Virus record (IMG/VR): IMGVR_UViG_3300014962_000007
Span: 1 to 58,897 of that record
Direction: 5' to 3' (one strand)
DNA length: 58,897 bases
Source of the DNA: a virus
Taxonomy: Duplodnaviria > Caudoviricetes
Below are positions 19,974-42,095 of this stretch, piece by piece. A program made the translations under genes and the position numbers. Within the stretch, counting starts at the first letter, position 1. Every line of letters begins with the position of its first letter. The notes below the pieces were generated by a model. That model did no database searches and was not told where the DNA came from. It worked only from the letters and a program-made list of their open reading frames with translations.

Positions 19974-21782
19974 TCACTTACCTTTCGTGTACTGGTCGAT
20001 CAGCGCCTGTTCTTCCTTTGAGACCGTCGCCGACGTAACACCCAGCTTAGAACGGTTCGATGCAATGACGGGTTCCATCGACTTTTGAATGGCACGCTTG
20101 GCTTGCTCGGCGCGAAGCTGCGCAGTTTCGAGTTCGGTCTTTTCTGCTGGTGACAGTTTATCCGCACCCTTCATCATCAGCATACCGATGCGGGGGTCTT
20201 TTTGCAGGGCTTCGTCGATCTCGCGAATCTGCGTGGCCACCAGACGTTCGGCGTTGGTCAGCGCGGCAGAAGCACGGCTCAGGTCAAGACCTTCACGCTG
20301 GATGCGGTTGGTCTCAGCACTGATCTGCGCCTTCATCATCTCGACACGGCGGTTGAGTTCGTGGTCACGTGCCTGCACGTCTGTACCGTACAGTGCTTGC
20401 GCCGAGCGTTGTGCATCGGAGCGGCCCATGCGGGTTTGCTCCAGTGCCTTGAGGCCACCCTCAATGCTGGGCTTGATGCCTTCACGCTCCAAACCGACCA
20501 GCCCCTCGCGGGATTTCTGCATCGACTCAAAGTCCTTGAGCTTGGCCTGACGCTGTTCTTCGTCGTAACCCATGGCGCTCTTGGCACCCCCAGCAAACTC
20601 ACCGTAGCGACGACCACCTGCACCCAGCAGATATTGTTTGAGACCTTCACGCCGCTGTCTTTCGGGGTCGTAGGTCTCATCAAACATCTTTTGACGCTGG
20701 GCGATACCTTGATCGAACACAGCACGCTGTTCGGGGGTCAGGGCGTAGGCTTGACGAATCTCATCCTGTATACGCTTGCGCTCGACCTCGGAGTCGCGGT
20801 TGTAGTCGGCCTGCAAGGATGCTTCCAAGCCAGCCGGTTTTGCAGCGGCAGGAAGACCCGCGATACCGAGGGCTGGAGTCGCAGGGGCAGCGGAGGCAGC
20901 AGGTGACATACCCGGAGCAGCGGCAGCAGGTGACATACCCGGAGCAGCGGCAGCGGGGGCAGCAACGGTTTCAGCAGGAGGGGTCTGCCCCAACATGCGT
21001 GGATCGTTGGCCATCGTCGGGCGCAGATTTGCGCCTTCTGCACGTACTGCCTGCATGTTGCGGTCACGCTCTTGGTTAAGCGCCGCTGAGCGGTCGGAAC
21101 CTCCAAGGGCGATGTTCATCCGATCAATTATGCTGCCTTGCGGGATTGTTCGGCGTTGCAAAGCCACGCCTGCACGCTGAAGCATAGCGTTTTCATCTGG
21201 AGTACGGTCGTGCGGGTCTTTGGCAAGGATGCGCTGCACTTCTTTGTCGGTAGAGCCCCCCTCGTCGAACGCCACAATACCGCCAGACGCCATAGCTTTC
21301 GGCTGCGCCGCCATAGCTGCGCCGGGAGCACGCGCAATGCCTCCCGCCATGGCCTGTTGCAGATTCTGTTGCTGTTGTTCTGCTTGGTGCTGCGCGGTTT
21401 CGCCGCGCTGCTGAGCCAACTCAGCTTTGGTCAGATCGTGCACTTCCTTCTCGCGTTGTTGCGCGATGGTCTGGGGCTCCATACCCTGAGCGGCCTGCTG
21501 CTGACCCATGGCCAACTGCATCTGGCGTGCAGCGGCTTCCTTCTCAGACTTGATCTTTTGGAGGGCCAGAAGATCGAGCAGGTCTTGCGACATCTGATAC
21601 CGCTGTTGCAAGGGTGCAGGGTTGCCACGGTATGCGGCAACGCGATCTTCGACCGAACCGAGCCCGGCCATAGGACTGGCCTTGTTGGGTGACGGCATCG
21701 GCTGTTGTGGTTGTTGCGGCTGTTGTGGTGCACGGCCTTGGGACATGAGGCCAGCGAGTCCTTGTGCGTTCGGCATTTGCAT
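19974..21782 (-). CDS. putative internal virion/ejection protein
   Basis: 602 aa, Gln/Ala-rich, helical; MASGG and FDEGG motifs; position among ejection genes. Confidence 0.7.
   Translation of the reverse strand: MQMPNAQGLAGLMSQGRAPQQPQQPQQPMPSPNKASPMAGLGSVEDRVAAYRGNPAPLQQRYQMSQDLLDLLALQKIKSEKEAAARQMQLAMGQQQAAQGMEPQTIAQQREKEVHDLTKAELAQQRGETAQHQAEQQQQNLQQAMAGGIARAPGAAMAAQPKAMASGGIVAFDEGGSTDKEVQRILAKDPHDRTPDENAMLQRAGVALQRRTIPQGSIIDRMNIALGGSDRSAALNQERDRNMQAVRAEGANLRPTMANDPRMLGQTPPAETVAAPAAAAPGMSPAAAAPGMSPAASAAPATPALGIAGLPAAAKPAGLEASLQADYNRDSEVERKRIQDEIRQAYALTPEQRAVFDQGIAQRQKMFDETYDPERQRREGLKQYLLGAGGRRYGEFAGGAKSAMGYDEEQRQAKLKDFESMQKSREGLVGLEREGIKPSIEGGLKALEQTRMGRSDAQRSAQALYGTDVQARDHELNRRVEMMKAQISAETNRIQREGLDLSRASAALTNAERLVATQIREIDEALQKDPRIGMLMMKGADKLSPAEKTELETAQLRAEQAKRAIQKSMEPVIASNRSKLGVTSATVSKEEQALIDQYTKGK
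20896..20954. repeat. 27-bp tandem duplication (AAAAPGMSP x2)
   Basis: GCAGCAGGTGACATACCCGGAGCAGCG repeated in tandem, in frame. Confidence 0.85.
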
Positions 21783-21790
21783 GGGTTACC

Positions 21791-22774
21791 TCAAGGCGTA
21801 GTGGTAGAAGGCGACCAGATTTTGGTGCCATTGATGTAGTAGTTCCCCTGCGGGTCGATCTGCGTCCCGTTCGAGTAATATTTCCATCCCGGCTGTGCGT
21901 TGGCTTGTTGCGACGTAGTTTCGACAGGTTTTGTAGTGTCCTCAGTAGAGAACAGGCGGTCGTACAAGTCCATGATCCCACCGGATTGACTCAAAATCTG
22001 AGAGAGCGCACTCGGCTGCGAGTACGAGTAGGTCTGCGCGGCCAGCGGCAGACCCTGAAGGAGTGACTGCATGTACTGCACTTGCTTGTACGGGTAGTCA
22101 CGTTCTTCTTTGAATTGGCCAAGATCAGCGGTGATGCCTTCTTGCTCGATGGCACGCTCCTGTGCGCCGAGGTCGGCCTGCTTTTGAAGTGCGGCCAGAC
22201 CAAAGTTTTGTGCAGCGGTTGTAGCCTGTAGCCCCTGATCTTGTTCACGATTGAACTGAGCCATGGCCTGATCGTAAGCCGTTTTGTACCCTTGCCCGGT
22301 GATGTTGGACAGGTTCGTCAGTAGGTTACGCTGATTCTCCGACTCCATCAGGGCACCGCGACCACCACCAAATGCACCGGCCTTGGTCAGTGCAGTGCGA
22401 TTTTGGAGGTTTTGGATTTGCGCCTGACGCTTGGCCTCTTCAATCTGCGGATCGAGGGCTGCGGTCAAGTAGGGGTTCATCAGGCGTTGCGCATCCCCAG
22501 CAGTAAACTGCGTGGGGGTAAACGCCTTCATCTGGTCGGTCGGGATGGTCAGCCCGGCGATGCCTTGAAACGCCGTCTGCTGTGTGCCCGAGGCCCCCGC
22601 CGTGAGGGGACCGGTATATGCTTGGTACGGTTGGTTTGCAAGCGCTTGGCCACGGCCAAGCATCTCGGTTACATACGGCCCCGCCCAGTTGGACAGGGAG
22701 GATTCGGTACCAGTCTGCTGCCCTACGCCGGTAGTTGCAGAGGCTGCGGTGGTGGTTGGAGTCGGATCAGCCAT
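21791..22774 (-). CDS. putative DNA-transfer/ejection protein
   Basis: 327 aa Gln/Ala/Gly-rich; MNPY..., AGAFGGGRGAL motif typical of podovirus pilot/ejection proteins. Confidence 0.7.
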   Translation of the reverse strand: MADPTPTTTAASATTGVGQQTGTESSLSNWAGPYVTEMLGRGQALANQPYQAYTGPLTAGASGTQQTAFQGIAGLTIPTDQMKAFTPTQFTAGDAQRLMNPYLTAALDPQIEEAKRQAQIQNLQNRTALTKAGAFGGGRGALMESENQRNLLTNLSNITGQGYKTAYDQAMAQFNREQDQGLQATTAAQNFGLAALQKQADLGAQERAIEQEGITADLGQFKEERDYPYKQVQYMQSLLQGLPLAAQTYSYSQPSALSQILSQSGGIMDLYDRLFSTEDTTKPVETTSQQANAQPGWKYYSNGTQIDPQGNYYINGTKIWSPSTTTP

Positions 22775-22782
22775 GTGCTACC

Positions 22783-23682
22783 TCACGAGGGGAGAAATTT
22801 GTTAGGGTTGACTTGTTTACCCTGCTTGGTCGTACCAGTACGAGCCTTACGAATCCTGTCCATCATCTCGTACAGGCGCTGGGCACCAGCTTCAGAGTTG
22901 CCATTGCCAAGGTGCCCGACGACATCAGCGGGGATGACAAACTCACCGTGACTCAACTTGGCCTCCTGACTACCGTCAATTCGTGCTGGAATTTTATCAG
23001 CCATGCCATCGGTTGCGCCACCCAAATATCGACCTTGCGCCAGTGCAGTGATACCCCCATGTGCGTATTTCGGCACGGGGACTTTTTCAATGACTTTGGA
23101 TGCGGCGGTGCCATCACGTGCGACATCCGATTCGGCCCCCCGCTCGGCAGCGGCTCGGGTAGGGGGGGGGGCTTGGCGTGCGGGGGTGTCTCGGTTCAAC
23201 GTAGCCAGCCCGGCAGCTTGCTCTTTGGCGGCAGCACGCGCCGCAGTAGCCGGTTCACCCGGCGCAGCGTAGGTCATGTCACTGAAATACCGCTGGCCCC
23301 CGCTACCGGGGCGACGGTTGGGGTCGTAGTGGCTACCAGCCACACCTTCTCGCACGGCCTCGTACGTAGGAATCTTGCCTTGGTAGCCGGTCTTGGGTTG
23401 TGCCTGCTGGCTTTGGTATGCGCCATACAACCCACCCGCCGCTGCCGCAACCTTCCTCCAGTCGGTCTGCCCGTTGGTCGTGAACTGCCCTTTGAGGAAA
23501 TTCAACGCCCCAGAGCCTGCCGACTTCAGGAAGTTGGAGATTGTGGAAATCGTGCCGGGGTCTTCGTACCCGATCTGTTGCAGAATGTCGGCGTTCGAGG
23601 GAGAGTCGGCATTGCTCCAGTCCGAGGTCGTCGAGGGGTCGATACCAATCGAGTCCCAGAACCAAGAATCATCTTCACCCAT
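22783..23682 (-). CDS. virion protein with C-terminal YAHGG...DKIPA...LSHGEFVIPADVV domain
   Basis: ATG 23682 after GAGGGG; C-terminal domain resembles the F/YAxGG...GEFV module of tape-measure proteins. Confidence 0.75.
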   Translation of the reverse strand: MGEDDSWFWDSIGIDPSTTSDWSNADSPSNADILQQIGYEDPGTISTISNFLKSAGSGALNFLKGQFTTNGQTDWRKVAAAAGGLYGAYQSQQAQPKTGYQGKIPTYEAVREGVAGSHYDPNRRPGSGGQRYFSDMTYAAPGEPATAARAAAKEQAAGLATLNRDTPARQAPPPTRAAAERGAESDVARDGTAASKVIEKVPVPKYAHGGITALAQGRYLGGATDGMADKIPARIDGSQEAKLSHGEFVIPADVVGHLGNGNSEAGAQRLYEMMDRIRKARTGTTKQGKQVNPNKFLPS

Positions 23683-23684
23683 TT

Positions 23685-26600
23685 TCAACCCCTCAAAATT
23701 TTCAACAGTTCTTCGTTTGCATCGAGGATGTCATCCCCCACTACGCCACCCTTGGCATACGCCCCATACGGAGATGCAAACATCTTTTCCTGCGACGGGT
23801 TAGCAAAAATGCTGTTCCAGTCGTAAATGTACCCAATCTTGGTCGGATCGGCAGCTTTTACCGTCACCTGCTGGCCGCTGACATCCGGTGCCTGTGTCAG
23901 CATCCCCATCATAGAGTTGAGGTTGCCCACACGCTGCGTCTTGAGCGCGGCAGCGGCTTGTGCCTGCCGCGTCTTTTCTGCGTCTGCGGCAGCGGCAGCT
24001 TGTGCGTCAGCAATAGCCTTTTGAGTGGCCGCTTGGTTGGTAGCCATCTGCCCGAACACATCTTTGAACCCAGCAGCAGACTCAGATCGCGCAAGTTGGA
24101 TCGCAGTATTGAGGTCAAACCCCTGCTGCTGCAACTGCGTGGCCAAGTCTTTTTGCCCCTGTGTAAGGGTGTCATACTTGGTTTGCACGTCCTGAGTAAG
24201 CCCAGAAATCTGGGTTTGTGTTTGCTGCTGCGCTTGCTGGATGGCCGTGTTGAGGTCGACGCCCTGCTGTTGCAGTTGTGCGGCCAGTGCTTTTTGTTCG
24301 GCAGTCAGTGCGTCGTACTTGGCCTGCACATCAGCGGAAATACCCGTGATCTGCGCTTTCAGGTTTGCCTCAGTCGTACCGATCTTGGTGAGAAGGTCAG
24401 TTTTGGTCGTGCCGAGGTTGTTGGCGACGGTCGTGACTGCTAAAGACAACGCATCGTCTCGCGCCAACCCAGCCTTCTCGTATGCAGCCATCTGGTCGGC
24501 GATGGCTTTCTGTACGTCGGTGACTTGTTGCTGCACCGCACCGATTTGCGTAGCGAACTGCGCCTTCAGATTTGCCTCAGTCGTGCCCATCTGCGCAAGC
24601 AGATCAGCTTTCGTGGTTCCGAGGTTACCGGCAACTTTGTCGATAGCGGCTTGGAGTGCAGCATCGCCTTGGAGCCCCGCAGCTTGCGCATCGGCGATGG
24701 CTTTCGTCAAGGACGCTTGCACGTTGCTGATCTGAGTCTGCACCCCTGCGATCTGTGTCGCAAACTGCGACTTCAGCGCAGCTTCCGTGGTGCCGATCTT
24801 GGCCAGCAAGTTTGCGGCAGTAGTGCCCTGATCCGCAGCTACTTTGTCGATCGCAGCCTTGAGCGCTGCGTCACCCGCGAGTCCTGAGGCCTTTGCGTCA
24901 GCAATCGCAGCCGTGAGCTTGGTATCCAGCCCAGAGATTTGCGTAGCGAACTGCGCCTTCAGATTTGCCTCAGTCGTGCCAAGGCGGGTAAGCAGTGAGG
25001 CAGTATCTGTCTTTTGGGTAGCTGCGACATCGCTGATCGCCTTTTGCAAGGCGGCGTCCCGAGTCATCCCGGCTTGCTCATTCTGGGCAACCTGTGTAAG
25101 GATGTCCGTCTTGGTCTTATCCAAGCTGGATTGCAGGGTCTTAATTTCTGTACCCAGTGCAGTCTGGACACCAGCAATCTTCGATGTCAGTGTGGCGGTA
25201 TCCGTCTTCTGTGAAGCGGCAACTGTCTCAATCGCTTTTTGCAGGGCGGCATCTCGCGTCATGCCCGACTGCTCGTTCTTGGCAACCTCGGCCAAGATGT
25301 CTTTTTCGGTCTGCGCCAGATCGGTTTGCAGCGTACCTACTTGCCCGGACAACTTTGATACATCACCGCCCAGCGCAGTAATCTGGCTGTTCAGGTCTTT
25401 CTTGATGGTCTCCAGCACGGCAGGGTCTACACCGGACTGTTTGGCCAGCGTATCAAGCTGCTCCATGATGGAGTTGTAGCGTGCGGGGTCGAGGTTGGCT
25501 TTGGCCTTACCCGCAAGTTCTGATTCAGAATACTGCCCAAGCAGTTTTTGCACATCCGCTTGCGTAGGCCTTTTAAGCCCCAGTGCGTCGTACGCCGCCT
25601 TGGCCTCACCCTCGTCTACCATTCGAGGGTCCACATACTCCCTAATTGCCTTGGCCTGTTCAGATTCATTGACCTGCCCGACAAACTGTTTGACTTCGGC
25701 ATCAGTAGACTTATAGCCAAGATCGGTGAGGTACTTGCGTGCCTCAGCCTCAGTGACCTGACGGGGGTTGACGTACTCACCAATCGCTGTAGCTTGGGCG
25801 GCTTCTGCTCTGGCCCCTACAAACTGATTGATTTCGGCATCGGTAGGGACGTACCCACGTTGCGCGAAGAACGACTTCGCCTCTTCAAATGTCGTGGCTG
25901 TAGGATCGAGTTGCGAGGCCAACTTGGCAGACAGCGCAGCTTCATCGCCCTGCTGTACATACTGCTGGGCTTGTGCTTCAGTCAACGTGACGCCTTCTTT
26001 TTTGGCAACCTCAATGACTTCTTTTGCGTCCAGTTTGTTCTGGTCCACAAACTTGTTGATGTTGGTGAACGTCGCGGTCGACGCTGGTTGGCCAACGAAC
26101 CCTTTAACGGTGTTGTCGTTCGGTACGAAGTTACTCGCACGAAAGATTTCGGCGACAGCAGATTCGGTGAGGACGTCCGTTGTGCGTGATACAGTTTGCG
26201 TACCATTCAACAGATCGCCCAATTTGACGTTCATGTCACCCAGATTGACCACAGAACGCAGATCAGCAACCGGCGTCAGCTTGGCCAGATCAGCGTTGGC
26301 GTTCGGATCGGCGAAGTTGGCAATACTGTTCGCAGTGAGGAGTTCTGCCAACGTGACATTCTGTCCAGTAGCATCTTTGGCCACGACCGAGTTGTAGGTC
26401 AGTGGGGTTACGCCGATTGAAGACTCGTCGCGCAACACCATAGACGCGTTGCGCACGTTGTTGAGCAGCGTGGCGGCGCTGGTTGAACCACCCACCGTAA
26501 CCGCGACACTGACAATAGTGTCACCAACGGCCCTTGCGTAATCTGCAAAGGTGGCGTTCTGCGCCAGACCGAACGAGGACACCTTGTCAAAGGTAAGTTG

Positions 26601-29339
26601 CGCAACCGTCGTGGCGATTTCAGTGCTTTGCTCGGTCAGCATACCCGCAGCGTTGCGGCGAATGCCCTCAACGAACGCGTCGGTCCCACCGGTCAACGGG
26701 ACACCCTGCATGATTTTGTTCATGCCCGGAATACCCAACTTCTCAAACGCCACCTCCATGGAAGCCATCGCTGCCGTACGAAGGGCGTTTTCTTGTGTAG
26801 TCAATTTGCGATATGCGAATACCCCGTTCTTCTCTGCTTCTTCGGCGCTGGAATATGAATTACCCTCACTGAACCGGCTCGTGCTGATCACGGCACTGCC
26901 GCCCTCAACCCACGCGTTATTGGCAGCGATAGCACCGTTGGTAAGCAGGGAGGTGACGGGGCCACCCACGTAGAACGAACCGAACGACTCGACGAGCGAC
27001 GCGATACCCGCAGCGACAGGGCGCTCCATGCCGACCAACTTCGACATGTCGGTGTCTTTGCCCTTGGCCAAAATGTCCTGCATTTTGGTCAGCGTGGACG
27101 TGTCGGCACCAAGGGCGTCCCCAACCCATTGCGCGGCACGAACCCCAACCCCTGCGAGGTCAGCCGCCGCCATATTCATGCCGGTCTTGATGGTACCAAA
27201 GATGTTGGTGTAGTCGGACGCCTTGATCTCCCCGGTCGGGACGACTGAGAACGCCATGCTCTTGGTCTTGATGGCCTCGGGAGCTTCTTTGAGGACGTTG
27301 GCGATCACACCGAACGTCATCTGATCTGCGCCCTTGAGCATTTGCTGACGCTGGCTGTCCGTGGCGTTGAGGTACGCACCAATGAACTGGTTGTACTCGG
27401 CCTTTGTAAGATTAGCCGGGTTGAAGTTCTTGTAGTCCGTGACGTTGCTCAGAATCTTATCCGTGACGTAGTTGGTCACGGTATCGTTGACTTTGACAAG
27501 TGAACCTGCATTGGCCGAAGCGGCGGCTTCTTCCTTGGTCTGCGTGGTAAACGAGCTTGTCTTACCAGTGTCAGGGTTTGTCCACTCGAATGTGGCACCA
27601 GACCCCAGCGTCTTGCGGGCCATGGTGAAGGCTTCACCAAACGTCGCTGCATTCTTGATCTTGGTCTTGGACTCAGCATCAGACAGAATCTGATATGTAT
27701 TACCGTCCGGTGCCTTGAAATAGGTCATACCCGTAGCCGCAGCGGCTTTTTGTGCCGCAATGGTAGACGCATACTTGGAGCCGTCAAATACCTTGTCGGC
27801 TGCAACCGCCCCAGTGGACTTGTCAACTGCAGTGCCAGAAGCGTCGCCGTTGGCCAGCGCTTTGGCCGCATCGTTATTGATCGGTAGCCCTTTGAACTGC
27901 CCCACGCTTAGGAAATGCTCATAGGGGTCTTGGTCTGCTTTGAGGCCATTGATCTTGGCGTATTCGTCAGCTTTGAACTCGGGGTTCATCGCCTCAACAA
28001 ACGCACGGTTACTTGTGAAATAGATAGGGTCAAGCGCCTGCGTCAGTTTATCAACCGAAGTTTTGACTTCTTCCGATGCTTTTGTATACCCCAGAGTGAT
28101 TTCATCATGCTTTGTCTGGAGGTTAGTCAGCGCAGTGTTGTACTCTTGTAGCTTGGGGCGGTAGAAATCTGCGTAATCTTTGTTGAGGCTGGTGGTATAC
28201 GCATCAGCGGCGTTCTTTGCTGCGGTTGCAGCATCGAAGTTTGCCCGTGTTTTGTCGTTGTTGTATGTGGCAATCGCCCGTTCAGCTATATCGGCAAGAC
28301 GCTTTTGCTCGTCCAGTCGTATATTAAGTTGCGATGCCATGTTGTTGTAATCGGCAGCGGCGGTTTTTTGGTCGTTCTCGTTGGCTTCAAGGAGCGTGGC
28401 TTTTTCCTTGTAGCGGGCCATGGCGGTGTCAGTAGCGGTCGTTGCGTCTTTGAATGCGCCGGTTACCGTATCGCCCAGCGCCTTCGACCCGGCTTTGAGC
28501 ATAGCCGCACGCACTACGTTTGTCGGATTGCCTCCAGTTAACGCTGCCGATGCAGTGCCCATAAGAATATCTGACAGGATGGCTGTTTGCGTGCTGGACA
28601 ACTTTCCGTTGGGGTCAATCTGTTTGATGATGTCGGTGGTGAGCCCCGTAGCCGCAATTGCCGCGTTGATCACACCAGCCGATACGTTACCTCCAGACAA
28701 CTCGGTAGTGACCGCAGCGGAAATAATACGTTGTGCGGCATTGGGTAATTGCCTGAACCCAGAGACTTGCCCAAGAATTGCAGGTACGGCAGCGCCCGCG
28801 CCACCTGTAAGCGCGGCCTTCAATGGGTCTTGGCCGGTAACGACAGCTACAGCGGCAGAGCCCGCCGCAGCCCCAGCAAGTTCAGCGGCGAGCGCTGAAC
28901 TTGTCGCCATCCCGGCTTCTTGGGCCGCAAGCATTGCAGCTTGGCTTCCTGAAGTGCCATATTCGACCCCCGCAGCCGCTTCACCTGCGTACGCGCCTGC
29001 CGCCTTACCCACGTAGGAGCCAACTTCCTGCACCACATAGGCTTTGGCAGTAGCTTCAAGCACATCGCCAAGGTCGCCCCCTTTGATGGCCACATCGGCC
29101 CCTTCAATGAGGGGGAGCGCCCACTGCATACCCGGCGTAGTGATTGCCGCTATTTGTGCAAGCGTTTTGACCGGATTATCTAACGCGGACTCAATAACCT
29201 GACCTACGGTCGTCATCACCGGGTCAATGACTTCGTCAACAACCCAGCTAACCGCATCTCCGACTGCATCAAAGACATCCCCTACGGCATCTACTACCGC
29301 ACCCACAGCGTTTCCCAGTTCCTCTACGGGATCACACAT
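23685..29339 (-). CDS. very large repeat-rich internal virion protein (about 1884 aa)
   Basis: Start MCDPV (ATG 29339); Ala/Gly hydrophobic N-region, ~38-aa EA..(F/Y)...GY..TDAE..QFVG repeats, ~50-55-aa DAAL..AI...GTTEANLKAQ coiled-coil repeats, C-terminal YAKGG. Confidence 0.75.
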   Translation of the reverse strand: MCDPVEELGNAVGAVVDAVGDVFDAVGDAVSWVVDEVIDPVMTTVGQVIESALDNPVKTLAQIAAITTPGMQWALPLIEGADVAIKGGDLGDVLEATAKAYVVQEVGSYVGKAAGAYAGEAAAGVEYGTSGSQAAMLAAQEAGMATSSALAAELAGAAAGSAAVAVVTGQDPLKAALTGGAGAAVPAILGQVSGFRQLPNAAQRIISAAVTTELSGGNVSAGVINAAIAATGLTTDIIKQIDPNGKLSSTQTAILSDILMGTASAALTGGNPTNVVRAAMLKAGSKALGDTVTGAFKDATTATDTAMARYKEKATLLEANENDQKTAAADYNNMASQLNIRLDEQKRLADIAERAIATYNNDKTRANFDAATAAKNAADAYTTSLNKDYADFYRPKLQEYNTALTNLQTKHDEITLGYTKASEEVKTSVDKLTQALDPIYFTSNRAFVEAMNPEFKADEYAKINGLKADQDPYEHFLSVGQFKGLPINNDAAKALANGDASGTAVDKSTGAVAADKVFDGSKYASTIAAQKAAAATGMTYFKAPDGNTYQILSDAESKTKIKNAATFGEAFTMARKTLGSGATFEWTNPDTGKTSSFTTQTKEEAAASANAGSLVKVNDTVTNYVTDKILSNVTDYKNFNPANLTKAEYNQFIGAYLNATDSQRQQMLKGADQMTFGVIANVLKEAPEAIKTKSMAFSVVPTGEIKASDYTNIFGTIKTGMNMAAADLAGVGVRAAQWVGDALGADTSTLTKMQDILAKGKDTDMSKLVGMERPVAAGIASLVESFGSFYVGGPVTSLLTNGAIAANNAWVEGGSAVISTSRFSEGNSYSSAEEAEKNGVFAYRKLTTQENALRTAAMASMEVAFEKLGIPGMNKIMQGVPLTGGTDAFVEGIRRNAAGMLTEQSTEIATTVAQLTFDKVSSFGLAQNATFADYARAVGDTIVSVAVTVGGSTSAATLLNNVRNASMVLRDESSIGVTPLTYNSVVAKDATGQNVTLAELLTANSIANFADPNANADLAKLTPVADLRSVVNLGDMNVKLGDLLNGTQTVSRTTDVLTESAVAEIFRASNFVPNDNTVKGFVGQPASTATFTNINKFVDQNKLDAKEVIEVAKKEGVTLTEAQAQQYVQQGDEAALSAKLASQLDPTATTFEEAKSFFAQRGYVPTDAEINQFVGARAEAAQATAIGEYVNPRQVTEAEARKYLTDLGYKSTDAEVKQFVGQVNESEQAKAIREYVDPRMVDEGEAKAAYDALGLKRPTQADVQKLLGQYSESELAGKAKANLDPARYNSIMEQLDTLAKQSGVDPAVLETIKKDLNSQITALGGDVSKLSGQVGTLQTDLAQTEKDILAEVAKNEQSGMTRDAALQKAIETVAASQKTDTATLTSKIAGVQTALGTEIKTLQSSLDKTKTDILTQVAQNEQAGMTRDAALQKAISDVAATQKTDTASLLTRLGTTEANLKAQFATQISGLDTKLTAAIADAKASGLAGDAALKAAIDKVAADQGTTAANLLAKIGTTEAALKSQFATQIAGVQTQISNVQASLTKAIADAQAAGLQGDAALQAAIDKVAGNLGTTKADLLAQMGTTEANLKAQFATQIGAVQQQVTDVQKAIADQMAAYEKAGLARDDALSLAVTTVANNLGTTKTDLLTKIGTTEANLKAQITGISADVQAKYDALTAEQKALAAQLQQQGVDLNTAIQQAQQQTQTQISGLTQDVQTKYDTLTQGQKDLATQLQQQGFDLNTAIQLARSESAAGFKDVFGQMATNQAATQKAIADAQAAAAADAEKTRQAQAAAALKTQRVGNLNSMMGMLTQAPDVSGQQVTVKAADPTKIGYIYDWNSIFANPSQEKMFASPYGAYAKGGVVGDDILDANEELLKILRG

Positions 29340-29835
29340 TGGCACCACCTTCCAATGTCATCTGTAAGACCACGCGCCCCTGTGCGGTCTTGGTTGTCTT
29401 CATCTCGTCTCCATCAGACTTGATTTTTTGGAACGCCTGACGCAGTATCCGAGTAATTGCCGGGCTACGGTAAATGGCAACGATTTCAGTAACTCCGCTG
29501 CTGACCAACCGTGTAAGCCCTTCAGCTACGTTGTCCACCATGTTTTGCATAGTATCGGCGTTCATCGCCCACACCATTGCTTTATTACTGTTTTCTCCCG
29601 AACCACGCTTGTACAAAAAGAAAGTATTCCCAATGATTGCCCCCTCGGCATTCATCTTTGAGATGGCCGCAGCAGTAGCTATCATCCAGATTTTGAAGTC
29701 TTTGGTTGGCCCGTTGCCGGGGTCGTTGGAGTGGTACGTGTGCAGAATCTGCCCGTAGTCCAACTGTTCTTTGCGGCTGTCAACAAGTTTCATGGGCGGT
29801 GCCGGTTTGTGGGGGTTGGTAGAGTTTACCGCCAA
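29332..29835 (-). CDS. hypothetical protein, possible GNAT-like fold (T7 gp13-like position)
   Basis: 167 aa alpha/beta pattern, between tail genes and internal proteins; start uncertain (TTG 29835 or ATG 29793). Confidence 0.55.
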   Translation of the reverse strand: MAVNSTNPHKPAPPMKLVDSRKEQLDYGQILHTYHSNDPGNGPTKDFKIWMIATAAAISKMNAEGAIIGNTFFLYKRGSGENSNKAMVWAMNADTMQNMVDNVAEGLTRLVSSGVTEIVAIYRSPAITRILRQAFQKIKSDGDEMKTTKTAQGRVVLQMTLEGGANV

Positions 29836-29858
29836 GACGCCTCACCGTATACCCCCAG

Positions 29859-32638: not shown

Positions 32639-32647
32639 AGAGCACCT

Positions 32648-33064
32648 TTACCTGCCGGCAACGCCTTTGGTTTTCTCAAAAGACCGCATCCCAGCGATGC
32701 CCAATATACCCGATAGTATCACCCACAGCTGGTCGGCGTCCAGCGGCTTAGGCGGTCCCATCTCCTTGGGAATCCAGCCCATCCCCTGCAGGTAGGTCCA
32801 TCCCCAAAGCATCAAGGGATACAGCAAGAACTGATAGGCCATGGCCGCAGCGCCGATCCACCCAATCGCTGGCCTCCAGCCTGCGACGAAGATGCTGCTG
32901 TGCTGGGCCTCTGTGCGGTTGACCTCGATCTGAGCAAGATCAATCGACTGATCAAGTTCCTTGGCCCGAAGCTCAAGTTCCAGCCGCTCCTTGTCGGATG
33001 TGTGCAAATCCCCGATGACCTTGCCAACGGAGTCAATGACGGTGCCGATGCCCAGCAGGTTCAT
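32648..33064 (-). CDS. holin (3TM, GTA-holin-like)
   Basis: IFVAGWRPAIGW...YQFLLYPL...LSGILGIAGMRSFEK; adjacent to endolysin. Confidence 0.8.
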   Translation of the reverse strand: MNLLGIGTVIDSVGKVIGDLHTSDKERLELELRAKELDQSIDLAQIEVNRTEAQHSSIFVAGWRPAIGWIGAAAMAYQFLLYPLMLWGWTYLQGMGWIPKEMGPPKPLDADQLWVILSGILGIAGMRSFEKTKGVAGR

Positions 33065-33567
33065 GCTTTCAGTCCGTTGAGGGTGCGATTGATCCAGCCT
33101 AGCAGAAACTTCATCTGGGTGCGATCGCGCTGCACGATGTCGCGGTAGCGTGTGATCTTGGCAATCGCATAGGACAGCACGAACTTTTCCGGGTCTGCAG
33201 CATTGAGCGCGGCAACCGTACGGGGACCGATCGCACCATCCGGTGTTGCCCCAACAACCAGCTGGGCCAAAACCTTGGCAGGTCGCCCGGTGTTGACGTA
33301 AAAGTTAAAGATGTCGGAGGCCACGGCCTGATGCGTGATCTCGTCGCCCCGGATGTCATCCCAGAAGTGCCGTTTGTAGAAGTCCCGAACCACTTGAGCA
33401 GACGGAGTGCCACCAGAGTCAATGACGCCCCAACCGGACCAGTTTGGATGCATGTTTCGTGCAATACCCGCGTATGTCTGCCCGCCCCAGTCACCCGAGA
33501 CGGTGTGCAACACATAACCCCCTTCATCACGGATCATGCGCTCAAACGCGGGATTGAAGTCAGCCAT
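33061..33567 (-). CDS. endolysin, glycoside hydrolase family 108 with peptidoglycan-binding C-terminus
   Basis: EGGYV...D.GG.TYAGI catalytic motif; DGAIGPRT; FLLGWINR. Confidence 0.9.
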   Translation of the reverse strand: MADFNPAFERMIRDEGGYVLHTVSGDWGGQTYAGIARNMHPNWSGWGVIDSGGTPSAQVVRDFYKRHFWDDIRGDEITHQAVASDIFNFYVNTGRPAKVLAQLVVGATPDGAIGPRTVAALNAADPEKFVLSYAIAKITRYRDIVQRDRTQMKFLLGWINRTLNGLKA

Positions 33568-35620: not shown

Positions 35621-35622
35621 AT

Positions 35623-35865
35623 TCAACCCCCGATCGGTTTAAGCAGTATTTGTCCACCGACCTCAACTTTTTCGTAAGTTATGCCGTCGATTACCACTGT
35701 CATAGTTTCCGGTGTTTGGGGGTTTTCAACTGATTGCAGCCAGCTATTCACCCGCGCCGTTTGCATCTCAACAATCTGCTCTTCGGTGTATGTGTGATCA
35801 TCCGGCAAATAGAGGGCGTCTCGAAAAACGCCGTAAGCAGTGTTGTATTCAAAATCAATTTTCAT
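35623..35865 (-). CDS. small tail-associated protein
   Basis: 80 aa between two fibre genes. Confidence 0.65.
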   Translation of the reverse strand: MKIDFEYNTAYGVFRDALYLPDDHTYTEEQIVEMQTARVNSWLQSVENPQTPETMTVVIDGITYEKVEVGGQILLKPIGG

Positions 35866-35874
35866 TTTTTCACC

Positions 35875-37914: not shown

Positions 37915-37922
37915 AATCTTCC

Positions 37923-38732
37923 TTACGCAGCGATCTGCTGCCAATCAGGTGTTTGCGTTGTCCCGACCTGCGCCCAGCCGGGGGATTGAGCGTCATCGAC
38001 ATTTTGCCACCCGCTTGTCTGGATGTCATCTATTGCAGCCCATCCTGCAGACTGAATGGTTCCTATATTTCCCCATTCGGCGTTTTGAATGTCATTGATC
38101 AGACCCCAGACGTTGACTGACCCAACATATCCAACAGCGTACACGCCGGTGACTTGAACTGTTGCCTTTGCGGAAACAGTTGCCGTACCAACCTGCCCCG
38201 TTGCCTGTACGCCAGTGACATAAATGACAATCGACTGGAGGATGGTGACGTTGCCAATCTGCCCGGTGGCCTCGACGCCCGTGACGTCAATAACACCAGT
38301 GCCTGTTACTGTGACGAAACCAATCTGGCCTGTAGCCGCAACAGTAGCAGTGCCGATCGCTCCAGTAGCCGCAACACCAGTAATGGGAACATTGGCATCA
38401 GTAACAACAGAAACCGTACCAATCTGGCCTGCGGCTTGAACTCCAGTGGGAAATACGTTTGCAGCGCCAGTGACGGTAACTGTGCCCGTCTGGCCGGTTG
38501 CAAAAACACCAATAACGACCGCTGTGGCGCTTGCAGCAACGATAACTGTGCCGACAGCACCGGCAGCCCCTACGCCGGTTACAGGAACATTTGCACCTGC
38601 AGAAACAAAAACGGAGCCAATCTGCCCCGTTGCAGAAACTCCATCTACAAATACTTCGGTGAGGTCAAGCCCCCAAGAGCCTCTGCTCCAAGGGCCGGAC
38701 CCCCATCCTACGTATTCAACAGACGATGCCAC
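37923..38732 (-). CDS. virion protein with VTGV-x-ATG-x-IG-x-V beta repeats
   Basis: GWGSGPWSRGSWG start, ~22-aa repeats, Trp-spaced C-terminal repeats. Confidence 0.7.
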   Translation of the reverse strand: MASSVEYVGWGSGPWSRGSWGLDLTEVFVDGVSATGQIGSVFVSAGANVPVTGVGAAGAVGTVIVAASATAVVIGVFATGQTGTVTVTGAANVFPTGVQAAGQIGTVSVVTDANVPITGVAATGAIGTATVAATGQIGFVTVTGTGVIDVTGVEATGQIGNVTILQSIVIYVTGVQATGQVGTATVSAKATVQVTGVYAVGYVGSVNVWGLINDIQNAEWGNIGTIQSAGWAAIDDIQTSGWQNVDDAQSPGWAQVGTTQTPDWQQIAA

Positions 38733-38741
38733 ATCTCACCA

Positions 38742-39176
38742 TCAGGCAATACGGATGACCGCAGATGATGCGTCATTGATCGGGAACTGCACCGTAAAGT
38801 TACCGGCAGTGGAGGTCTTGTCCCCACCAAAATCCAGCACGCACACGGCGGGGTTCGTCGTTCCGTTGGCCAGATAGATCAGAGCGCCACGGGCTGTGAT
38901 CGTTGCCGTCGCCCATGTGACATCAGAGAAGTCAATGAACGCAGTGGTACCTGAAGATGTAGGCACCTGACTGATCGTCAAACTCTGACCACCGGCGGTG
39001 TACCCGGTACCAACAACTTCGTTGGACGTGGTGTACGCAGTGGTGGCGGCACTCAAAGTGGCCGACGACGTGTACAACGCGATCTTGAATGTTTGGGACG
39101 TGCCCGTACCAAAGTTGAAATTCCCGTTGAGGATTCCAACCTTGAAAGAGGTGCACATCGCTTGAGTGATTGCCAT
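38742..39176 (-). CDS. conserved virion structural protein
   Basis: MAITQAMCTSFK...FKIALYTS...GY.AGG...ARGALIY...VLDFGGDK; SD AAGGAG. Confidence 0.75.
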   Translation of the reverse strand: MAITQAMCTSFKVGILNGNFNFGTGTSQTFKIALYTSSATLSAATTAYTTSNEVVGTGYTAGGQSLTISQVPTSSGTTAFIDFSDVTWATATITARGALIYLANGTTNPAVCVLDFGGDKTSTAGNFTVQFPINDASSAVIRIA

Positions 39177-39187
39177 TTTCTAACTCC

Positions 39188-39823
39188 TTAACTGACAGGG
39201 ATACGGACTTGCCCAGAGCGATACGCATCCTGCCGCAGTTTGCCGTCGCCCAGTTGTTTCAACAGACCAATTGCCTGTACGTACAACTTCTCGTACACAG
39301 CAATCATGTCTTGCTCACCCTTCATGAAGCGGATGGCTTCGACCAATGCGCCATTGAGCAGGGCAGAATCAAACTCATCCCCCAACCACGTGGTACCCGC
39401 CGTCACGATGGACTCAGGGTAGTAGCCATAGTGCAACTCTGCACTATATGCGAGGTCTGGTGTAGGGCCGAGAATAAATGCGGAATCGTCGAAGTTGGCG
39501 TAATGGCGGGGGCGACCACGCGAGGCAAGGTTGTTGATTGGGTACGCCTCACGGATGAAGTTCACATCCTTGTTGAGGAGGAAGTGGTATTCACCGCTCG
39601 TATCAATAACCGCCAGTGAGTAGCAGTACAGGAAGTCCGAAGGGATTTGCAGATACTGATTACCCACAGACATGGTGCCCGTCACGTTTCTACGGAGGGC
39701 TGGAATCTGCACCGTGTTGTAAATCTTCTGCTCAGCCTGTTCCGTAAACATGGCGAGTTCATCCGCCGAGAACTCGTTCTCGCAGATGTCTTGGATGTTG
39801 ATACACAACTCGGTGTAGTTCAT
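39188..39823 (-). CDS. head-tail adaptor / tail tubular protein A-like
   Basis: MNYTEL...QAEQKI...GRPRHYA...LGPTPD..Y...Y...ALLNGALVEA. Confidence 0.65.
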   Translation of the reverse strand: MNYTELCINIQDICENEFSADELAMFTEQAEQKIYNTVQIPALRRNVTGTMSVGNQYLQIPSDFLYCYSLAVIDTSGEYHFLLNKDVNFIREAYPINNLASRGRPRHYANFDDSAFILGPTPDLAYSAELHYGYYPESIVTAGTTWLGDEFDSALLNGALVEAIRFMKGEQDMIAVYEKLYVQAIGLLKQLGDGKLRQDAYRSGQVRIPVS

Positions 39824-39832
39824 GTCTACCTC

Positions 39833-40027
39833 TTAGGCCATGGGGCCACGGCACATAACGCCTTTGGTGGCAGCGCCTGCGCCGCGCATCTTGATACCGC
39901 TGGTTTTGGTGGGGGCGTAGTCGTCCACTCGCTTGTTGGCGATGACGGTCTTCGTTTCCTTGGCGTCCTTTTTAGGCGACACCTCACCAGCAGGTTCCAT
40001 CTTGAATGGTTTGATCTTTCCAGACAT
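39833..40027 (-). CDS. small basic virion-associated protein
   Basis: 64 aa Lys-rich, MRGAGAATKG motif; SD GGAGG. Confidence 0.7.
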   Translation of the reverse strand: MSGKIKPFKMEPAGEVSPKKDAKETKTVIANKRVDDYAPTKTSGIKMRGAGAATKGVMCRGPMA

Positions 40028-40028
40028 A

Positions 40029-40166
40029 TCAGCCTCCACGCTTCTGTGCAGCGACCTTGGCGAGATTTCGGCCCATGGTCTTCATGTCTTGGTTCGTCTT
40101 GCCCGGATTACCCTTGCTTGGACCTTTTTGGGTCGGGGCACTACCTTGAGTTTGCTTCGTTGCCAT
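40029..40166 (-). CDS. small basic protein (45 aa, not in ORF track)
   Basis: Hand-translated MATKQTQGSAPTQKGPSKGNPGKTNQDMKTMGRNLAKVAAQKRGG*; SD AAGGAG. Confidence 0.7.
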   Translation of the reverse strand: MATKQTQGSAPTQKGPSKGNPGKTNQDMKTMGRNLAKVAAQKRGG

Positions 40167-40176
40167 CTCACACTCC

Positions 40177-40566
40177 TTACGTTGTCACGATTGATACTGT
40201 ACCAATTTGTCCCCGCGCAACCAAGGTATTTGGTGTCAGGGGGTCATCATAGCTGCGTGCACCACCCACCGGGTTCCAACCCCACTGGATATTACGGCTA
40301 CCTTCACCAATAGAACCGTCGGCAAGGGTGCCAGATTGCACGTAGGTGTTATCGGGGCGGGGGTTGCGCAACCCCTGTGGGTCGTCCACAGGGTACATGC
40401 CCAACTGCAACTGTGGCTGGTCGGGTTCCCAGCACTCGGGGCACACCAACATGTTGACCTGCTTGGTCTTGATCACCAACGTGCGCAACTCGCGCAAGCG
40501 GAATCGAAACCCGCATCGGTCACAGATCGCAATGGCAATCTTGTTGGAGGCGAAGCGATTACCCAT
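40177..40566 (-). CDS. conserved Zn-binding (CxxC...CxxC) late protein
   Basis: ICDRCGF...VCPECWEPDQPQL...DPQGLRNPRPD. Confidence 0.75.
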   Translation of the reverse strand: MGNRFASNKIAIAICDRCGFRFRLRELRTLVIKTKQVNMLVCPECWEPDQPQLQLGMYPVDDPQGLRNPRPDNTYVQSGTLADGSIGEGSRNIQWGWNPVGGARSYDDPLTPNTLVARGQIGTVSIVTT

Positions 40567-41276
40567 CAACCGCCCCCGATGTACGAGCGGCGCGGCACAA
40601 ACCGCACAGCAGCTTTTTCCCGATCCTCACCTGCGGCCAGATTGAACTGCTCCTCGTAGGCGTCTTTGAGCATCGGGACGCGCTGCGCCAACTCCGGCAC
40701 CTTCATAGCGATGTGGTACGCCAGCCCGGCAGTCAGTGCAGGCAGGAAGCGGAAGTTCATGTCGGGTGTCTGGACACCTGCGCCAGCGTCTTCAATGCGG
40801 CGCATGCGCCAGTATTTGAAGACGTAGTACGGGTTCTCTTCGGTACCCTGATCGGGAACCGGCCAGACAACGATCTTGGGATTGTCGCGAAGGCGGCGAA
40901 CCCAGACTTGAATCGGGCGAGCTTGCTGGAGCTTGTTGGGGATCGTCGCGTAAGTAGAGACACTGATGCGAGTGATTGTCAGGTCCGCTTGTGTGGACAC
41001 ATTGCCTGCGCCCGTACGAACGACGTGCTCCATGAGGTCGATGGTGTCAGCAGGGAGGTCATATTCGGCCTGCCCTTGAACGAGGTTCACAGTGCCCTCG
41101 TCAATCGTCCACATGTTGATGCCACGGTTCTGCCACTCGATGGTCATCAGGTTCATGGAACGACGCGCAGTGCGCAAGTCGTAGCCAGAACGCATCTCAC
41201 GACCGGCACGCTCCCACGCCTCCTCCGCCACGTCGGTGAATTCGAGGTTGAAGTCAGAGGTGCCTGAAGTGGTCAT
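40566..41276 (-). CDS. head-completion/adaptor protein
   Basis: MTTSGT.DF...EEAWERAG...ARRSMNL...EWQNRGINMW...VWPVPD...GLAYHIAMK. Confidence 0.65.
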   Translation of the reverse strand: MTTSGTSDFNLEFTDVAEEAWERAGREMRSGYDLRTARRSMNLMTIEWQNRGINMWTIDEGTVNLVQGQAEYDLPADTIDLMEHVVRTGAGNVSTQADLTITRISVSTYATIPNKLQQARPIQVWVRRLRDNPKIVVWPVPDQGTEENPYYVFKYWRMRRIEDAGAGVQTPDMNFRFLPALTAGLAYHIAMKVPELAQRVPMLKDAYEEQFNLAAGEDREKAAVRFVPRRSYIGGG

Positions 41277-41443
41277 TTCTTGCCTTTCGCGGTGCCGCCC
41301 TGCGCAAAGAGAGTGAACTTGTCGCCGTCCTTGCGGCGCTTGGTCACGCCGTTGTCGTCGAACTTGTCACCATCTTTGCGGCGCATGGTTTTTCCACCCG
41401 GCATCTTGCTCGGGTTGATTGCTCCCATGCCTCGGCTGGCCAT
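41273..41443 (-). CDS. small basic protein (56 aa, not in ORF track)
   Basis: Hand-translated MASRGMGAINPSKMPGGKTMRRKDGDKFDDNGVTKRRKDGDKFTLFAQGGTAKGKK*; start/stop overlaps on both sides; RRKDGDKF x2. Confidence 0.7.
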   Translation of the reverse strand: MASRGMGAINPSKMPGGKTMRRKDGDKFDDNGVTKRRKDGDKFTLFAQGGTAKGKK

Positions 41444-41736
41444 CACAGCATACGCCCCTTGGTCTTGCCCTGACGTGCAATACCGTCAGCACGGCGCGAA
41501 GCGGAGCCCACAGAGCCACCCTTTTTGAATGCAGGGGTAACGCCCTTACCTTCGAGGCTACCCGGCAGGGCTGCACCGCCGCCAGCATCAGGTTCAGAAC
41601 GCACAGGGCGCTTGACTGGGGCGGGCTTCTTCATAGCGGGCTTTTTGGGGCCGGGTGTCACAGACGCGCCGTCCACATCTTGAGGTACGGGCATGCCTGC
41701 ACGAAACATACCGCCGTCGGCGTACTTCTTTTTCAT
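41443..41736 (-). CDS. small basic protein with YADGG/FKKGG and RADGIA..GKTKG motifs
   Basis: ATGA overlap; Lys/Pro-rich. Confidence 0.75.
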   Translation of the reverse strand: MKKKYADGGMFRAGMPVPQDVDGASVTPGPKKPAMKKPAPVKRPVRSEPDAGGGAALPGSLEGKGVTPAFKKGGSVGSASRRADGIARQGKTKGRML

Positions 41737-42095
41737 TTGCACATCCCGCCTTTCTTCATGACGATCTGAGTACCCTTGGTCTTGCCCTTCTTGGCAACAC
41801 CGTCAGCAGCCTTGCGGAACACGCTGCCGCCCTTCTTGTACTCCATCGCCTCTTTGCGTTCTTCGGCCACCATCTTCTTGGGAAGACCGGCCTTTTCCAT
41901 CGCCTTGGCGTGGCGCATTTCCATTGCTTTCTTGCTCGTAGCCATAGTGTCACCACCTTTCGCAAATTTGCGGCCTTTGTCGGCCTGTGTGAAATCTTTT
42001 CCCACAGACTGTGGGACTCCTGCCTTCTTGGCAAACGCGGGGTTGTGCGCCACCGCTGCCATGAAGTTGTGTTGAGCTTTACTCTTGCTCGGCAT
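41733..42095 (-). CDS. small basic protein with FAKGG/YKKGG/MKKGG motifs
   Basis: 120 aa; SD GAGGAG; AADGVAKKGKTKG motif shared with next gene. Confidence 0.8.
   Translation of the reverse strand: MPSKSKAQHNFMAAVAHNPAFAKKAGVPQSVGKDFTQADKGRKFAKGGDTMATSKKAMEMRHAKAMEKAGLPKKMVAEERKEAMEYKKGGSVFRKAADGVAKKGKTKGTQIVMKKGGMCK

Follow-up and report, generated by a model that had tools for sequence, protein, structure and literature searches.

The late proteins of a tailed virus of the class Caudoviricetes carry a short peptide signal, which we tentatively read as belonging to a module at which ejection proteins are joined or are cut on maturation. The window analyzed here is the whole of IMG/VR record IMGVR_UViG_3300014962_000007, a stretch of 58,897 bases estimated to be 95% complete. 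The signal is a leading edge composed of a bulky residue (Phe, Tyr, or Met), Ala or Lys, any residue, and two glycines, followed usually by Ile, Val, Met, or Ser. Units of three kinds begin with it: the C-terminal tail of a 1887-amino-acid (aa) protein, a segment of about 95 residues in a 301-aa protein (called here the GEFV segment), and a basic unit of about 28 residues in small proteins. On the same tentative reading, the GEFV segment would be a retained docking piece and not an enzyme, and by analogy it may be the podoviral counterpart of the C-terminal module of siphovirus tape measures (residues 733 to 782 of lambda gpH and from residue 1127 of T5 pb2). That the pentapeptide is a real signal common to late, probably injected proteins, as an earlier sequence-only reading of this DNA had proposed, is borne out by its enrichment, by its replication in related loci, and by the conservation of its positions.

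Occurrence and enrichment of the motif

Ten pentapeptides of the loose form [FYM]xxGG had been reported in late proteins, and all are present on the minus strand where they were placed. MASGG (21279-21293) and FDEGG (21255-21269) lie in a 602-aa protein, YAHGG (23053-23067) in the 301-aa open reading frame (ORF), YAKGG (23745-23759) in the 1887-aa ORF, and FAQGG (41294-41308) in a 57-aa protein. A 99-aa protein carries YADGG (41710-41724) and FKKGG (41515-41529), and a 120-aa protein carries FAKGG (41952-41966), YKKGG (41826-41840), and MKKGG (41745-41759). The lengths 301, 1887, 99, and 57 count from an earlier TTG or GTG codon, whereas the previously given 299, 1884, 97, and 56 count from ATG; the 97-aa count of the 99-aa ORF starts at its third methionine.

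Within-protein shuffling (2000 shuffles of the 49 ORFs taken as genes, 17,247 aa) separates two forms of the pattern. The loose form is marginal, with 18 matches against 10.5 ± 3.3 expected and 52 of the 2000 shuffles reaching 18. The refined form [FYM][AK]xGG, which was chosen after the hits were known, is clearly enriched, with 10 matches against 1.8 ± 1.3 expected and 0 of 2000 shuffles reaching that number; the excess over shuffled controls thus holds for the refined form and hardly for the loose one. Nine of the 10 refined matches fall in the six proteins named above (3066 aa). Eight of the 18 loose matches are additional to those reported earlier and look like chance; they lie in the large terminase TerL, an adaptor, a 144-aa protein, a 688-aa protein (three), the 1887-aa protein (one more), and a plus-strand 961-aa protein (one). 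The total number of GG pairs is as expected (124 against 124.2), which indicates that the context of the glycines, and not their number, is special. The codons differ among the ten instances, which points to selection on the peptide and not on a DNA site; a DNA-level recombination site was ruled out on this ground, and Tandem Repeats Finder was blank at the instances. The first position of the motif also accepts Leu, Ala, Lys, and Arg. Its letter strings were not found in the phage literature searched, a search that did not extend to subscription journals.

Because the motif had been narrowed after the hits were seen, replication was sought in 80 IMG/VR loci that surround relatives of the 301-aa protein (plus-strand ORFs called greedily, 400,374 aa in all, 100 shuffles). 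In these loci, [FYM]xxGG occurs 489 times against 277 ± 18 expected and [FYM][AK]xGG occurs 224 times against 47 ± 7 expected, although the loci are akin to each other and do not amount to 80 independent trials. The position of the motif is kept as well, in orthologues that are 40 to 90% identical. An opener of the form xxxGG-hydrophobic precedes the TDGMAD element of the GEFV segment in 79 of the 80 loci, with Phe, Tyr, or Met as the first residue in 53, Ala in 12, and Leu in 10. The ELLKILRG-type C-terminal tail was found in 30 of the 80 loci, 25 of which have an F/Y/M motif directly ahead of it, and the GGIVAF doublet of the 602-type protein (AMAAGGIVAFxxGG, at about residues 125 to 170) was found in 73, with F/Y/M in 65.

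These counts make it highly improbable that the instances have no common function and reflect only a Gly/Ala/Lys-rich low-complexity composition and a few homologous repeats, with a convergent likeness to tape measures. The marginal count of the loose pattern in the window would fit such an origin, as would the fact that two related small proteins hold five of the ten, the lack of detectable homology between the small-protein unit and the GEFV segment, and the failure of a profile hidden Markov model (HMM) to find gpH. Shuffles that keep the composition, however, leave the refined pattern far above expectation in both the window and its relatives while reproducing the number of GG pairs, so that it is the context of the glycines that stands out, and the positions are kept across divergent orthologues and at all 25 of the fusion joints described below.

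Joints and protein ends marked by the motif

The 327-aa protein (21791-22774, minus strand), recognizable by its …SNWAGPYV… sequence, does not itself carry the motif. In many relatives, a 327-type part is fused behind the GEFV segment through a linker of the form GG-x-x-x-YAxGG-x-V-x-x-F-x-x-GG, which lies between …NPxKFLP and …SNWAGPYV (for example, GGSVGYAKGGIASFAAGD or GGLVGYAGGGDVKHFLTGG). The 301-aa protein of the window stops at …NPNKFLPS, ahead of where the second Y-A-x-G-G would come. Among the best 150 GEFV proteins, 137 fit the core pattern and 94 of those 137 also fit the end pattern, with 43 left out of the count. Sixty-nine of the 94 scored proteins end within 5 residues of …KFLP, and the other 25 run on. 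In all 25 of those that run on, [FYM]xxGG is present within 40 residues, mostly in the form of a YAxGG…FxxGG doublet. The presence of the motif at 25 of 25 fusions and its absence from the separate 327-aa protein tie it to joints and not to each polypeptide.

The 1887-aa protein (23685-29348, minus strand) is Ala/Gln-rich and helical, and its position after the tail genes suggests that it is an ejection protein. Its C-terminal tail consists of YAKGG, then VVGDDILDANEELLKILRG, and then the stop codon (23688-23759, minus strand). Orthologues, which range from 839 to 2326 aa, end in P-[YF]-A-x-G-G-x-V … N-x-E-L-L-K-I-L-R-G, and a short amphipathic stretch behind the motif closes the 1887-aa protein. 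Farther upstream, at residues ∼1340 to 1690 (24290-25330, minus strand), a sequence of about 62 residues can be seen by eye to recur head to tail five or six times (…GDAALQAAIDKVA…LGTTEANLKAQFATQI…); no repeat was listed by BLAST self-comparison, and none was detected at the DNA level by Tandem Repeats Finder. In character, this part of the protein is like tape-measure proteins, whose helical body is repetitive.

In the Gln/Ala-rich 602-aa protein (19974-21782, minus strand), the motif forms the doublet MASGG-IVA-FDEGG at residues 164 to 176 (21255-21293, minus strand). The same gene contains a 27-base tandem repeat of 2.2 to 2.5 copies (20885-20964, minus strand), which codes for a duplicated AAAPGMSPAA.

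A conserved segment with no predicted fold

The gene of the 301-aa protein (22783-23688, minus strand; 299 aa from the first ATG) encodes an N-terminal part with a conserved GYQGKIP…YDPNRRPGSGGQRYF stretch, followed by the GEFV segment at residues 208 to 301 (22786-23067, minus strand). The order of elements in this segment is the YAHGG opener, TDGMADKIPA, SHGEFVIPADVV, HLGNGNS, the helix AGAQRLYEMMDRIRKARTG, and the end NPNKFLPS. A phmmer search with residues 200 to 301 against 1.84 billion representatives retrieved 8932 clusters (50% identity) at an E value of ≤0.001, including 674 at ≤1e-30. The best 150 clusters are 61 to 88% identical over about 95 residues, the remainder of these proteins being divergent.

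No family in Pfam, PHROGs, or NCBIfam matched the GEFV segment, nor did any match the 301-aa, 327-aa, 602-aa, 1887-aa, 99-aa, or 57-aa protein. Searches of Protein Data Bank (PDB) sequences with the segment and with its profile retrieved nothing related, and the ESM Atlas returned unnamed viral clusters only. Modeled alone by AlphaFold2 (45 aligned sequences), the segment reached a predicted local distance difference test (pLDDT) score of 55, with a helix at 66 to 85 as the sole element. In a model of the natural fusion P0087 (504 aa, 39 rows), the 327-like part forms long helices with a pLDDT of 85 to 92, and the GEFV part, with a pLDDT of 40 to 50, is not packed against them. The segment thus appears to be strongly constrained yet without a predicted fold of its own, and the compact domain that the sequence-only reading had placed behind YAHGG is not what AlphaFold2 predicts. 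Among cultured relatives, Planktothrix phage Pag-Yong1 / Synechococcus phage MinM2 and Caulobacter phages RW/GB2A carry the GEFV protein. In related phages, carriers of the segment are labeled in GenBank as "calcium-binding," "extracellular solute-binding," or "tail (length) tape measure protein" (for example, OL906435.1, 61467-62351), and these labels probably stem from the Gly-rich motif.

Likeness to tape-measure proteins

The sequence-only reading had pointed to a similar arrangement in the lambda tape measure gpH, and it is confirmed, with FATGG at residue 733, HRGEFV at residue 754, and YATGG at residue 778 (from residue 729, gpH reads …KFHFATGGFTGTGGKYEPAGIVHRGEFVFTKEATSRIGVGNLYRLMRGYATGGYVG…). 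Pfam coverage of gpH ends at residue 701, and its module at residues 733 to 782 is, like the GEFV segment, without a Pfam family. Searched by tblastn, the lambda module matched 1239 phage records at E values of up to 10; among the 60 rows listed, 50 fall within genes that bear a tape-measure annotation (TtpM included), and the others are hypothetical or unannotated. Eight further stretches, seven annotated as tape measure and one from an unannotated record, keep the lambda order of elements, namely, the opener, 15 to 25 residues, A-G-[IV]-V-H-x-x-E-[FYV]-V, and then a stretch of the form G…L..M. A second Y-A-x-G-G is present in lambda and in five of the eight. The opener itself is YAHGGI in the window, FATGGF in lambda, and GF/Y-x-x-GGY in all eight further stretches.

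Placed side by side, lambda gpH presents F-A-T-G-G, about 16 residues, H-R-G-E-F-V, G-x-G-N-L-Y-R-L-M, and Y-A-T-G-G, and the window presents Y-A-H-G-G … S-H-G-E-F-V … L-G-N-G-N-S … L-Y-E-M-M, to which the fused relatives add G-Y-A-x-G-G. The window core, A-K-L-S-H-G-E-F-V, lies 37 residues past the opener, and its His-Glu gap is one residue shorter than that of the tape-measure core. A GEFV-type core is absent from the 602-aa, 1887-aa, and small proteins. The two systems are also alike in that the lambda module is not seen in structures and the window segment has no AlphaFold2 fold. They differ in size and setting: the lambda module spans about 50 residues within a long-tail tape measure, whereas the window segment spans about 95 residues, has the extra TDGMADKIPA block, and belongs to a 301-aa protein of a short-tailed phage. 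An hhalign comparison of the GEFV alignment with lambda alone and with the nine tape-measure-type sequences gave an E value of 2e-4 and a probability of 45 to 46%, pairing S-H-G-E-F-V-I-P-A-D-V-V…L-Y-E-M-M with V-H-R-G-E-F-V-F-T-K-E-A…L-Y-R-L-M. Given this probability and the HMM miss, common descent of the segment and the tape-measure module is no more than likely, and the shared layout is the firmer fact.

Maturation of gpH is reported to remove a piece of about 14 kDa from a Gly-rich stretch close to its C-terminal end, giving gpH* of about 78 kDa, by an enzyme that the same source describes as not known (PMC12617516). The computed product of a cut at the FATGG opener would be 79.3 to 80.1 kDa, within gel error of the quoted value. 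Residues ∼690 to 817 are reported to be unresolved and residues 818 to 849 to bind gpI (PMC12617516), and residues 818 to 842 have been modeled as a three-helix coil on the gpI tripod (PMC10721106).

T5 pb2, the only tape measure with a mapped cut site that was found, is reported to be cut after R1127 (PMC10038345). The sequence at the cut is …SFVPR|AEGGMMYPGVSYQMGEHGTEVVTP… (wider, …NSFVPR|AEGGMMYPGVSYQMGEHGTEVVTPMVP…), and the cut falls between the bulky-residue position and A-x-G-G. With R1127|AEGGMM followed about 20 residues on by G-T-E-V-V-T-P, T5 has the layout of Y|A-H-G-G-I … G-E-F-V-I-P in the window. It differs in having Arg in place of the Tyr, Phe, or Met of the window and in its core, which is HGTEVVTP instead of HGEFVIP. 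The T5 paper also reports a muralytic metallopeptidase motif in pb2C, and no sign of such an activity was seen in the window. One relative, P0105 (306 aa), has both core types in tandem within one polypeptide: behind its GEFV segment come YANGG and …GLMGEAGPEAIMPL, a second, T5-like core (compare GTEVVTPM in pb2). The title of a paper by Zweig and Cummings from 1973 speaks of host involvement in the cut of the T5 tail protein. The cleavage role proposed by the sequence-only reading is made plausible by the T5 cut at R1127|AEGG.

Small basic proteins

The gene of the 120-aa protein (41733-42095, minus strand) matches phrog_16759. Its product comprises an N-terminal module (residues 1 to 48) that ends in FAKGG, a unit SVFRKAADGVAKKGKTKG opened by YKKGG, and a final MKKGG-MCK. 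The N-terminal module (41952-42095, minus strand) reads MPSKSKAQHNFMAAVAHNPAFAKKAGVPQSVGKDF… and recurs in 134 phage records. The matches listed are mostly to jumbo phages (phiKZ-like PA7, 201phi2-1, and the GAP32, CBB, 121Q, and RaK2 types), begin at query residue 1, and in several cases lie in genes annotated as "virion structural protein"; the module also fits the first 48 to 53 positions of two PHROGs with that annotation. Judged by these matches, it could be a virion-targeting peptide common to very different phages.

The 99-aa protein (41443-41742, minus strand) has an N-terminal YADGG-MFRAGMPVPQDVDGASV and a C-terminal FKKGG opening SVGSASRRADGIARQGKTKGRML, and 66 relatives were found. 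Their alignment gives an N-terminal unit, Y-A-D-G-G-M-F-R-E-G-M-P-V-P-Q-D-I-D-G-A-S, which is often repeated, and a C-terminal unit, [FYM]-K-K-G-G-S-V-G-S-A-S-R-R-A-D-G-I-A-x-x-G-K-T-K-G. One relative, P0201, bears the 120-aa N-terminal module ahead of 99-aa-type parts, which shows that the 120-aa and 99-aa proteins are related. The description of the motif carriers as otherwise unrelated therefore fails for this pair, which shares the C-terminal unit. The 57-aa protein (41273-41446, minus strand) ends in FAQGGTAKGKK and so has the motif, and the RADGIA unit is absent from it.

The basic C-terminal unit (…RADGIAxxGKTKG…) was found in at least 510 IMG/VR stretches and in at least 3079 protein clusters (90% identity, 8000 candidates scored). 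The proteins that bear it are 28 to 293 aa long and unrelated in their N-terminal parts, and each 5-kb locus has 2.65 units on average. GG lies no more than 20 residues upstream of 192 of the 202 distinct units; Phe, Tyr, or Met stands first in 142, and Leu or Lys stands first in most of the others. Longer small proteins contain head-to-tail repeats of the unit, and the pentapeptide marks each boundary. A capsid-loading role for this unit is possible. In phage T4, a short N-terminal capsid-targeting peptide is common to internal proteins that are otherwise unrelated, small, and packed with the DNA; the window unit differs in being C-terminal, about 28 residues long, basic, and sometimes in tandem, and in that no prohead protease was found. 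The unit was also tried as a first half of the GEFV segment and rejected, since the hhalign alignment covers the 9-residue motif only (E value, 0.25). With no likeness beyond the motif, it is by the pentapeptide alone that the ten instances can be treated as one signal.

Protease candidates and other processed virion proteins

In agreement with the sequence-only reading, no prohead protease was recognized with Pfam, PHROGs, or NCBIfam, and none of the head-module proteins between portal and capsid matched a protease family in these databases. No peptidase family, cysteine type included, was found in the 27 late proteins scanned with Pfam and PHROGs; nor was any found in nine of them with relaxed Pfam settings or in ten window proteins with NCBIfam.

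The last late gene (13436-19972, minus strand) encodes a 2178-aa protein with an LPD39 domain at residues 1281 to 1439 (PF18858; E value, 5.7e-23), a PLxRFG "tail-700" domain at residues 1451 to 2153 (NF032893; E value, 8e-109), and a DarB-like PHROG match (E value, 1e-79). The presence of LPD-type and PLxRFG domains together marks it as a polyvalent protein. It has no F/Y/M pentapeptide, and ALARGG stands where relatives carry FARGG. An HExxH sequence, HEATH, is located at residues 1115 to 1119 (16616-16630), and zincin-like peptidases were reportedly proposed in polyvalent proteins by Iyer et al. in 2017. No Pfam peptidase family matched the HEATH region at E values of up to 5.

The sequence-only reading had combined these elements into one system, in which the pentapeptide is a capsid-loading or cleavage tag and its reader or cutter is either the GEFV segment or the HExxH region of the 2178-aa protein. 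Such a system would account for the basic unit of about 28 residues at the C terminus of many unrelated small proteins and for the 120-aa N-terminal module that also heads jumbo-phage virion structural proteins, and the HEATH sequence is indeed present at residue 1115. It is nevertheless very unlikely. As an enzyme or reader, the GEFV segment has no family, solved relative, or predicted fold, whether alone or in fusion, and its His is not invariant, being Asp in two of the 14 relatives read. The segment itself starts with the motif, and in tape measures its equivalent is what follows the cut, that is, the substrate side. As for the 2178-aa protein, its HEATH region stays unmatched by peptidase families, and as the last gene of the block its product would be packed like the others.

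Two further systems with Gly-Gly sites bear on the question of who cuts. Host OpdA removes the first 20 residues of the P22 ejection protein gp7 (P22 GenBank record), and the annotated cut, E20|KGGKGG, falls just before a double Gly-Gly. As in the arrangement proposed here, a short-tailed phage has its ejection protein, gp7, cut beside Gly-Gly by a host enzyme, with no phage protease; gp7 differs in that the cut lies one residue before GG instead of two, in having no Ala, and in having no GEFV-type segment. The adenovirus protease (AVP) consensus is (M/I/L)XGG|X, as the sequence-only reading had stated, with sites on core and capsid precursors (PMC4246237). Its point of likeness to the window is that virion proteins of a basic, DNA-associated kind have a hydrophobic residue upstream of Gly-Gly. 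The analogy does not carry over to the cut itself, since AVP cuts after GG and T5 pb2 is cut ahead of A-x-G-G. Moreover, AVP wants a hydrophobic residue four places before its cut, whereas the bulky residue of the window stands five before the end of GG in 10 of 10 instances. An adenovirus-type site was rejected because the register is off by one residue and no protease was found in the family scans above, which leaves a loose analogy only.

Genome setting

The capsid protein of the window is 62 to 75% identical to its homologues in Planktothrix phage Pag-Yong1, Synechococcus phage MinM2, Pelagibacter phages HTVC023P and HTVC027P, phage DSL-LC04, and phage 023Pt_psg01. HTVC023P-type pelagiphages are classed as Podoviridae in PMC9599517, and the window phage is HTVC023P-like and short-tailed. 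None of the window proteins scanned matched a tail-tube or tape-measure family in Pfam, PHROGs, or NCBIfam.

The late genes on the minus strand are ordered as the small and large terminase, the portal, a GroES-like gene, three head-module genes, and a Mu gpT-like capsid gene, followed by tail genes that include two SU10-type adaptor paralogues and then by the final block of large genes. The GroES-like co-chaperonin gene (49138-49563, minus strand; Cpn10; E value, 2.8e-6; phrog_3188) is placed between the portal and the head-module genes, as it is in HTVC023P (gp36). The interval from portal to capsid thus encodes the GroES-like protein and proteins of 347, 149, and 197 aa, of which the 347-aa protein is highly charged; this composition suggests a scaffold, and no named family matched. 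The two adaptor genes (39188-39823 and 40566-41276, minus strand) match PF24175 with E values of 3.8e-20 and 1.2e-10, respectively, and a 130-aa Cys-rich ORF sits between them. The final block encodes proteins of 167, 1887, 301, 327, 602, and 2178 aa, large genes without a family except for the last, which is polyvalent. From their position, size, and composition, we infer that these proteins are packed in the head and ejected.

Discussion

The reading that we tentatively prefer, a joint or maturation-cut module, can be put as a mechanism. Motif-led units would lie at the joints and ends of proteins that are probably packed in the head and ejected ahead of the DNA, and the motif would act as a flexible joint separating neighboring modules. 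Separation could follow either of two routes, a cut between the bulky residue and Ala or Lys, as mapped in T5, or gene fission over evolutionary time, as with the genes of the 301-aa and 327-aa proteins. What is conserved behind the joint would fold only in the assembled particle, where it would dock on or plug the portal or tail channel. Tape measures would provide the model, with a region that is cut at maturation and, behind the cut, a fragment that remains docked in the tail tip. Cutting would be done by a host peptidase or by assembly itself, and not by the GEFV segment; the trimming of gp7 by OpdA is a precedent for host peptidases in this role. Ejection of these proteins, any cut in this phage, and the identity of the cutter are all put forward here by inference.

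Several observations weigh against this reading. No protease candidate was found, and for this phage and its relatives the search returned genome papers only and no cleavage data. The homology of the GEFV segment to tape measures is weak (hhalign probability of only 45%), and the GEFV profile HMM misses gpH among PDB sequences, which include full-length gpH, at E values of up to 10. The small-protein unit and the GEFV segment share the 9-residue motif and nothing else that hhalign aligns. The first position of the motif varies, being Ala or Leu in 22 of 79 GEFV openers and Arg in T5, and the P22 cut is in a different register. Finally, the motif lies 6 residues from the N terminus in the 99-aa family and about 20 residues from the C terminus in the 1887-aa protein, where cuts would free tiny pieces only, so that a docking or structural role fits these positions better.

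Such a role without any proteolysis is possible, though in our view somewhat less likely than the cut-module reading. The motif-led segments would then either fold against a partner in the particle, such as the portal barrel, the nozzle, or a core protein, or serve as flexible hinges for unfolded passage through the channel. The GEFV segment, 61 to 88% identical among its best 150 clusters yet without an AlphaFold2 fold, has the features typical of segments that fold on binding. The resolved C-terminal part of gpH (818-842/849) is likewise described as a three-helix coil held by gpI (PMC10721106, PMC12617516), and in the 1887-aa protein, similarly, a short amphipathic stretch behind the motif forms the C-terminal end. 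The proximity of motifs to protein termini, which makes for poor cut sites, and the lack of a protease gene in the Pfam, PHROGs, and NCBIfam searches fit as well. The sole residue-level experimental fact on a module of this kind, however, is the T5 cut. The motif is present at every one of the 25 fusion joints, and 69 of the 94 scored proteins stop just ahead of its place. If the motif were a docking tag and nothing more, every separate protein should carry it, which the 327-aa protein does not, and no partner was identified.

A broader form of the cut-module reading is speculative and, in our view, unlikely. It would have one peptide code, bulky | Ala/Lys-x-Gly-Gly, mark the cuts of injected proteins in all tail types, the cutter being a host oligopeptidase or an assembly-driven self-cut. 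If so, podoviral ejection proteins would be polyproteins whose parts can be joined or separated at will, the small basic proteins would be diced into peptides of about 25 residues that stay with the DNA, and lambda gpH would be cut to gpH* at F733|A734.

In its narrower form, a joint module shared with tape measures would predict a precise new N terminus in lambda, at Ala734. It would tie tape measures to the ejection proteins of short-tailed phages, which are poorly understood, and account for the freedom with which these ejection proteins fuse and split. The GEFV segment and the basic C-terminal unit are themselves among the commoner unannotated pieces of phage proteins.

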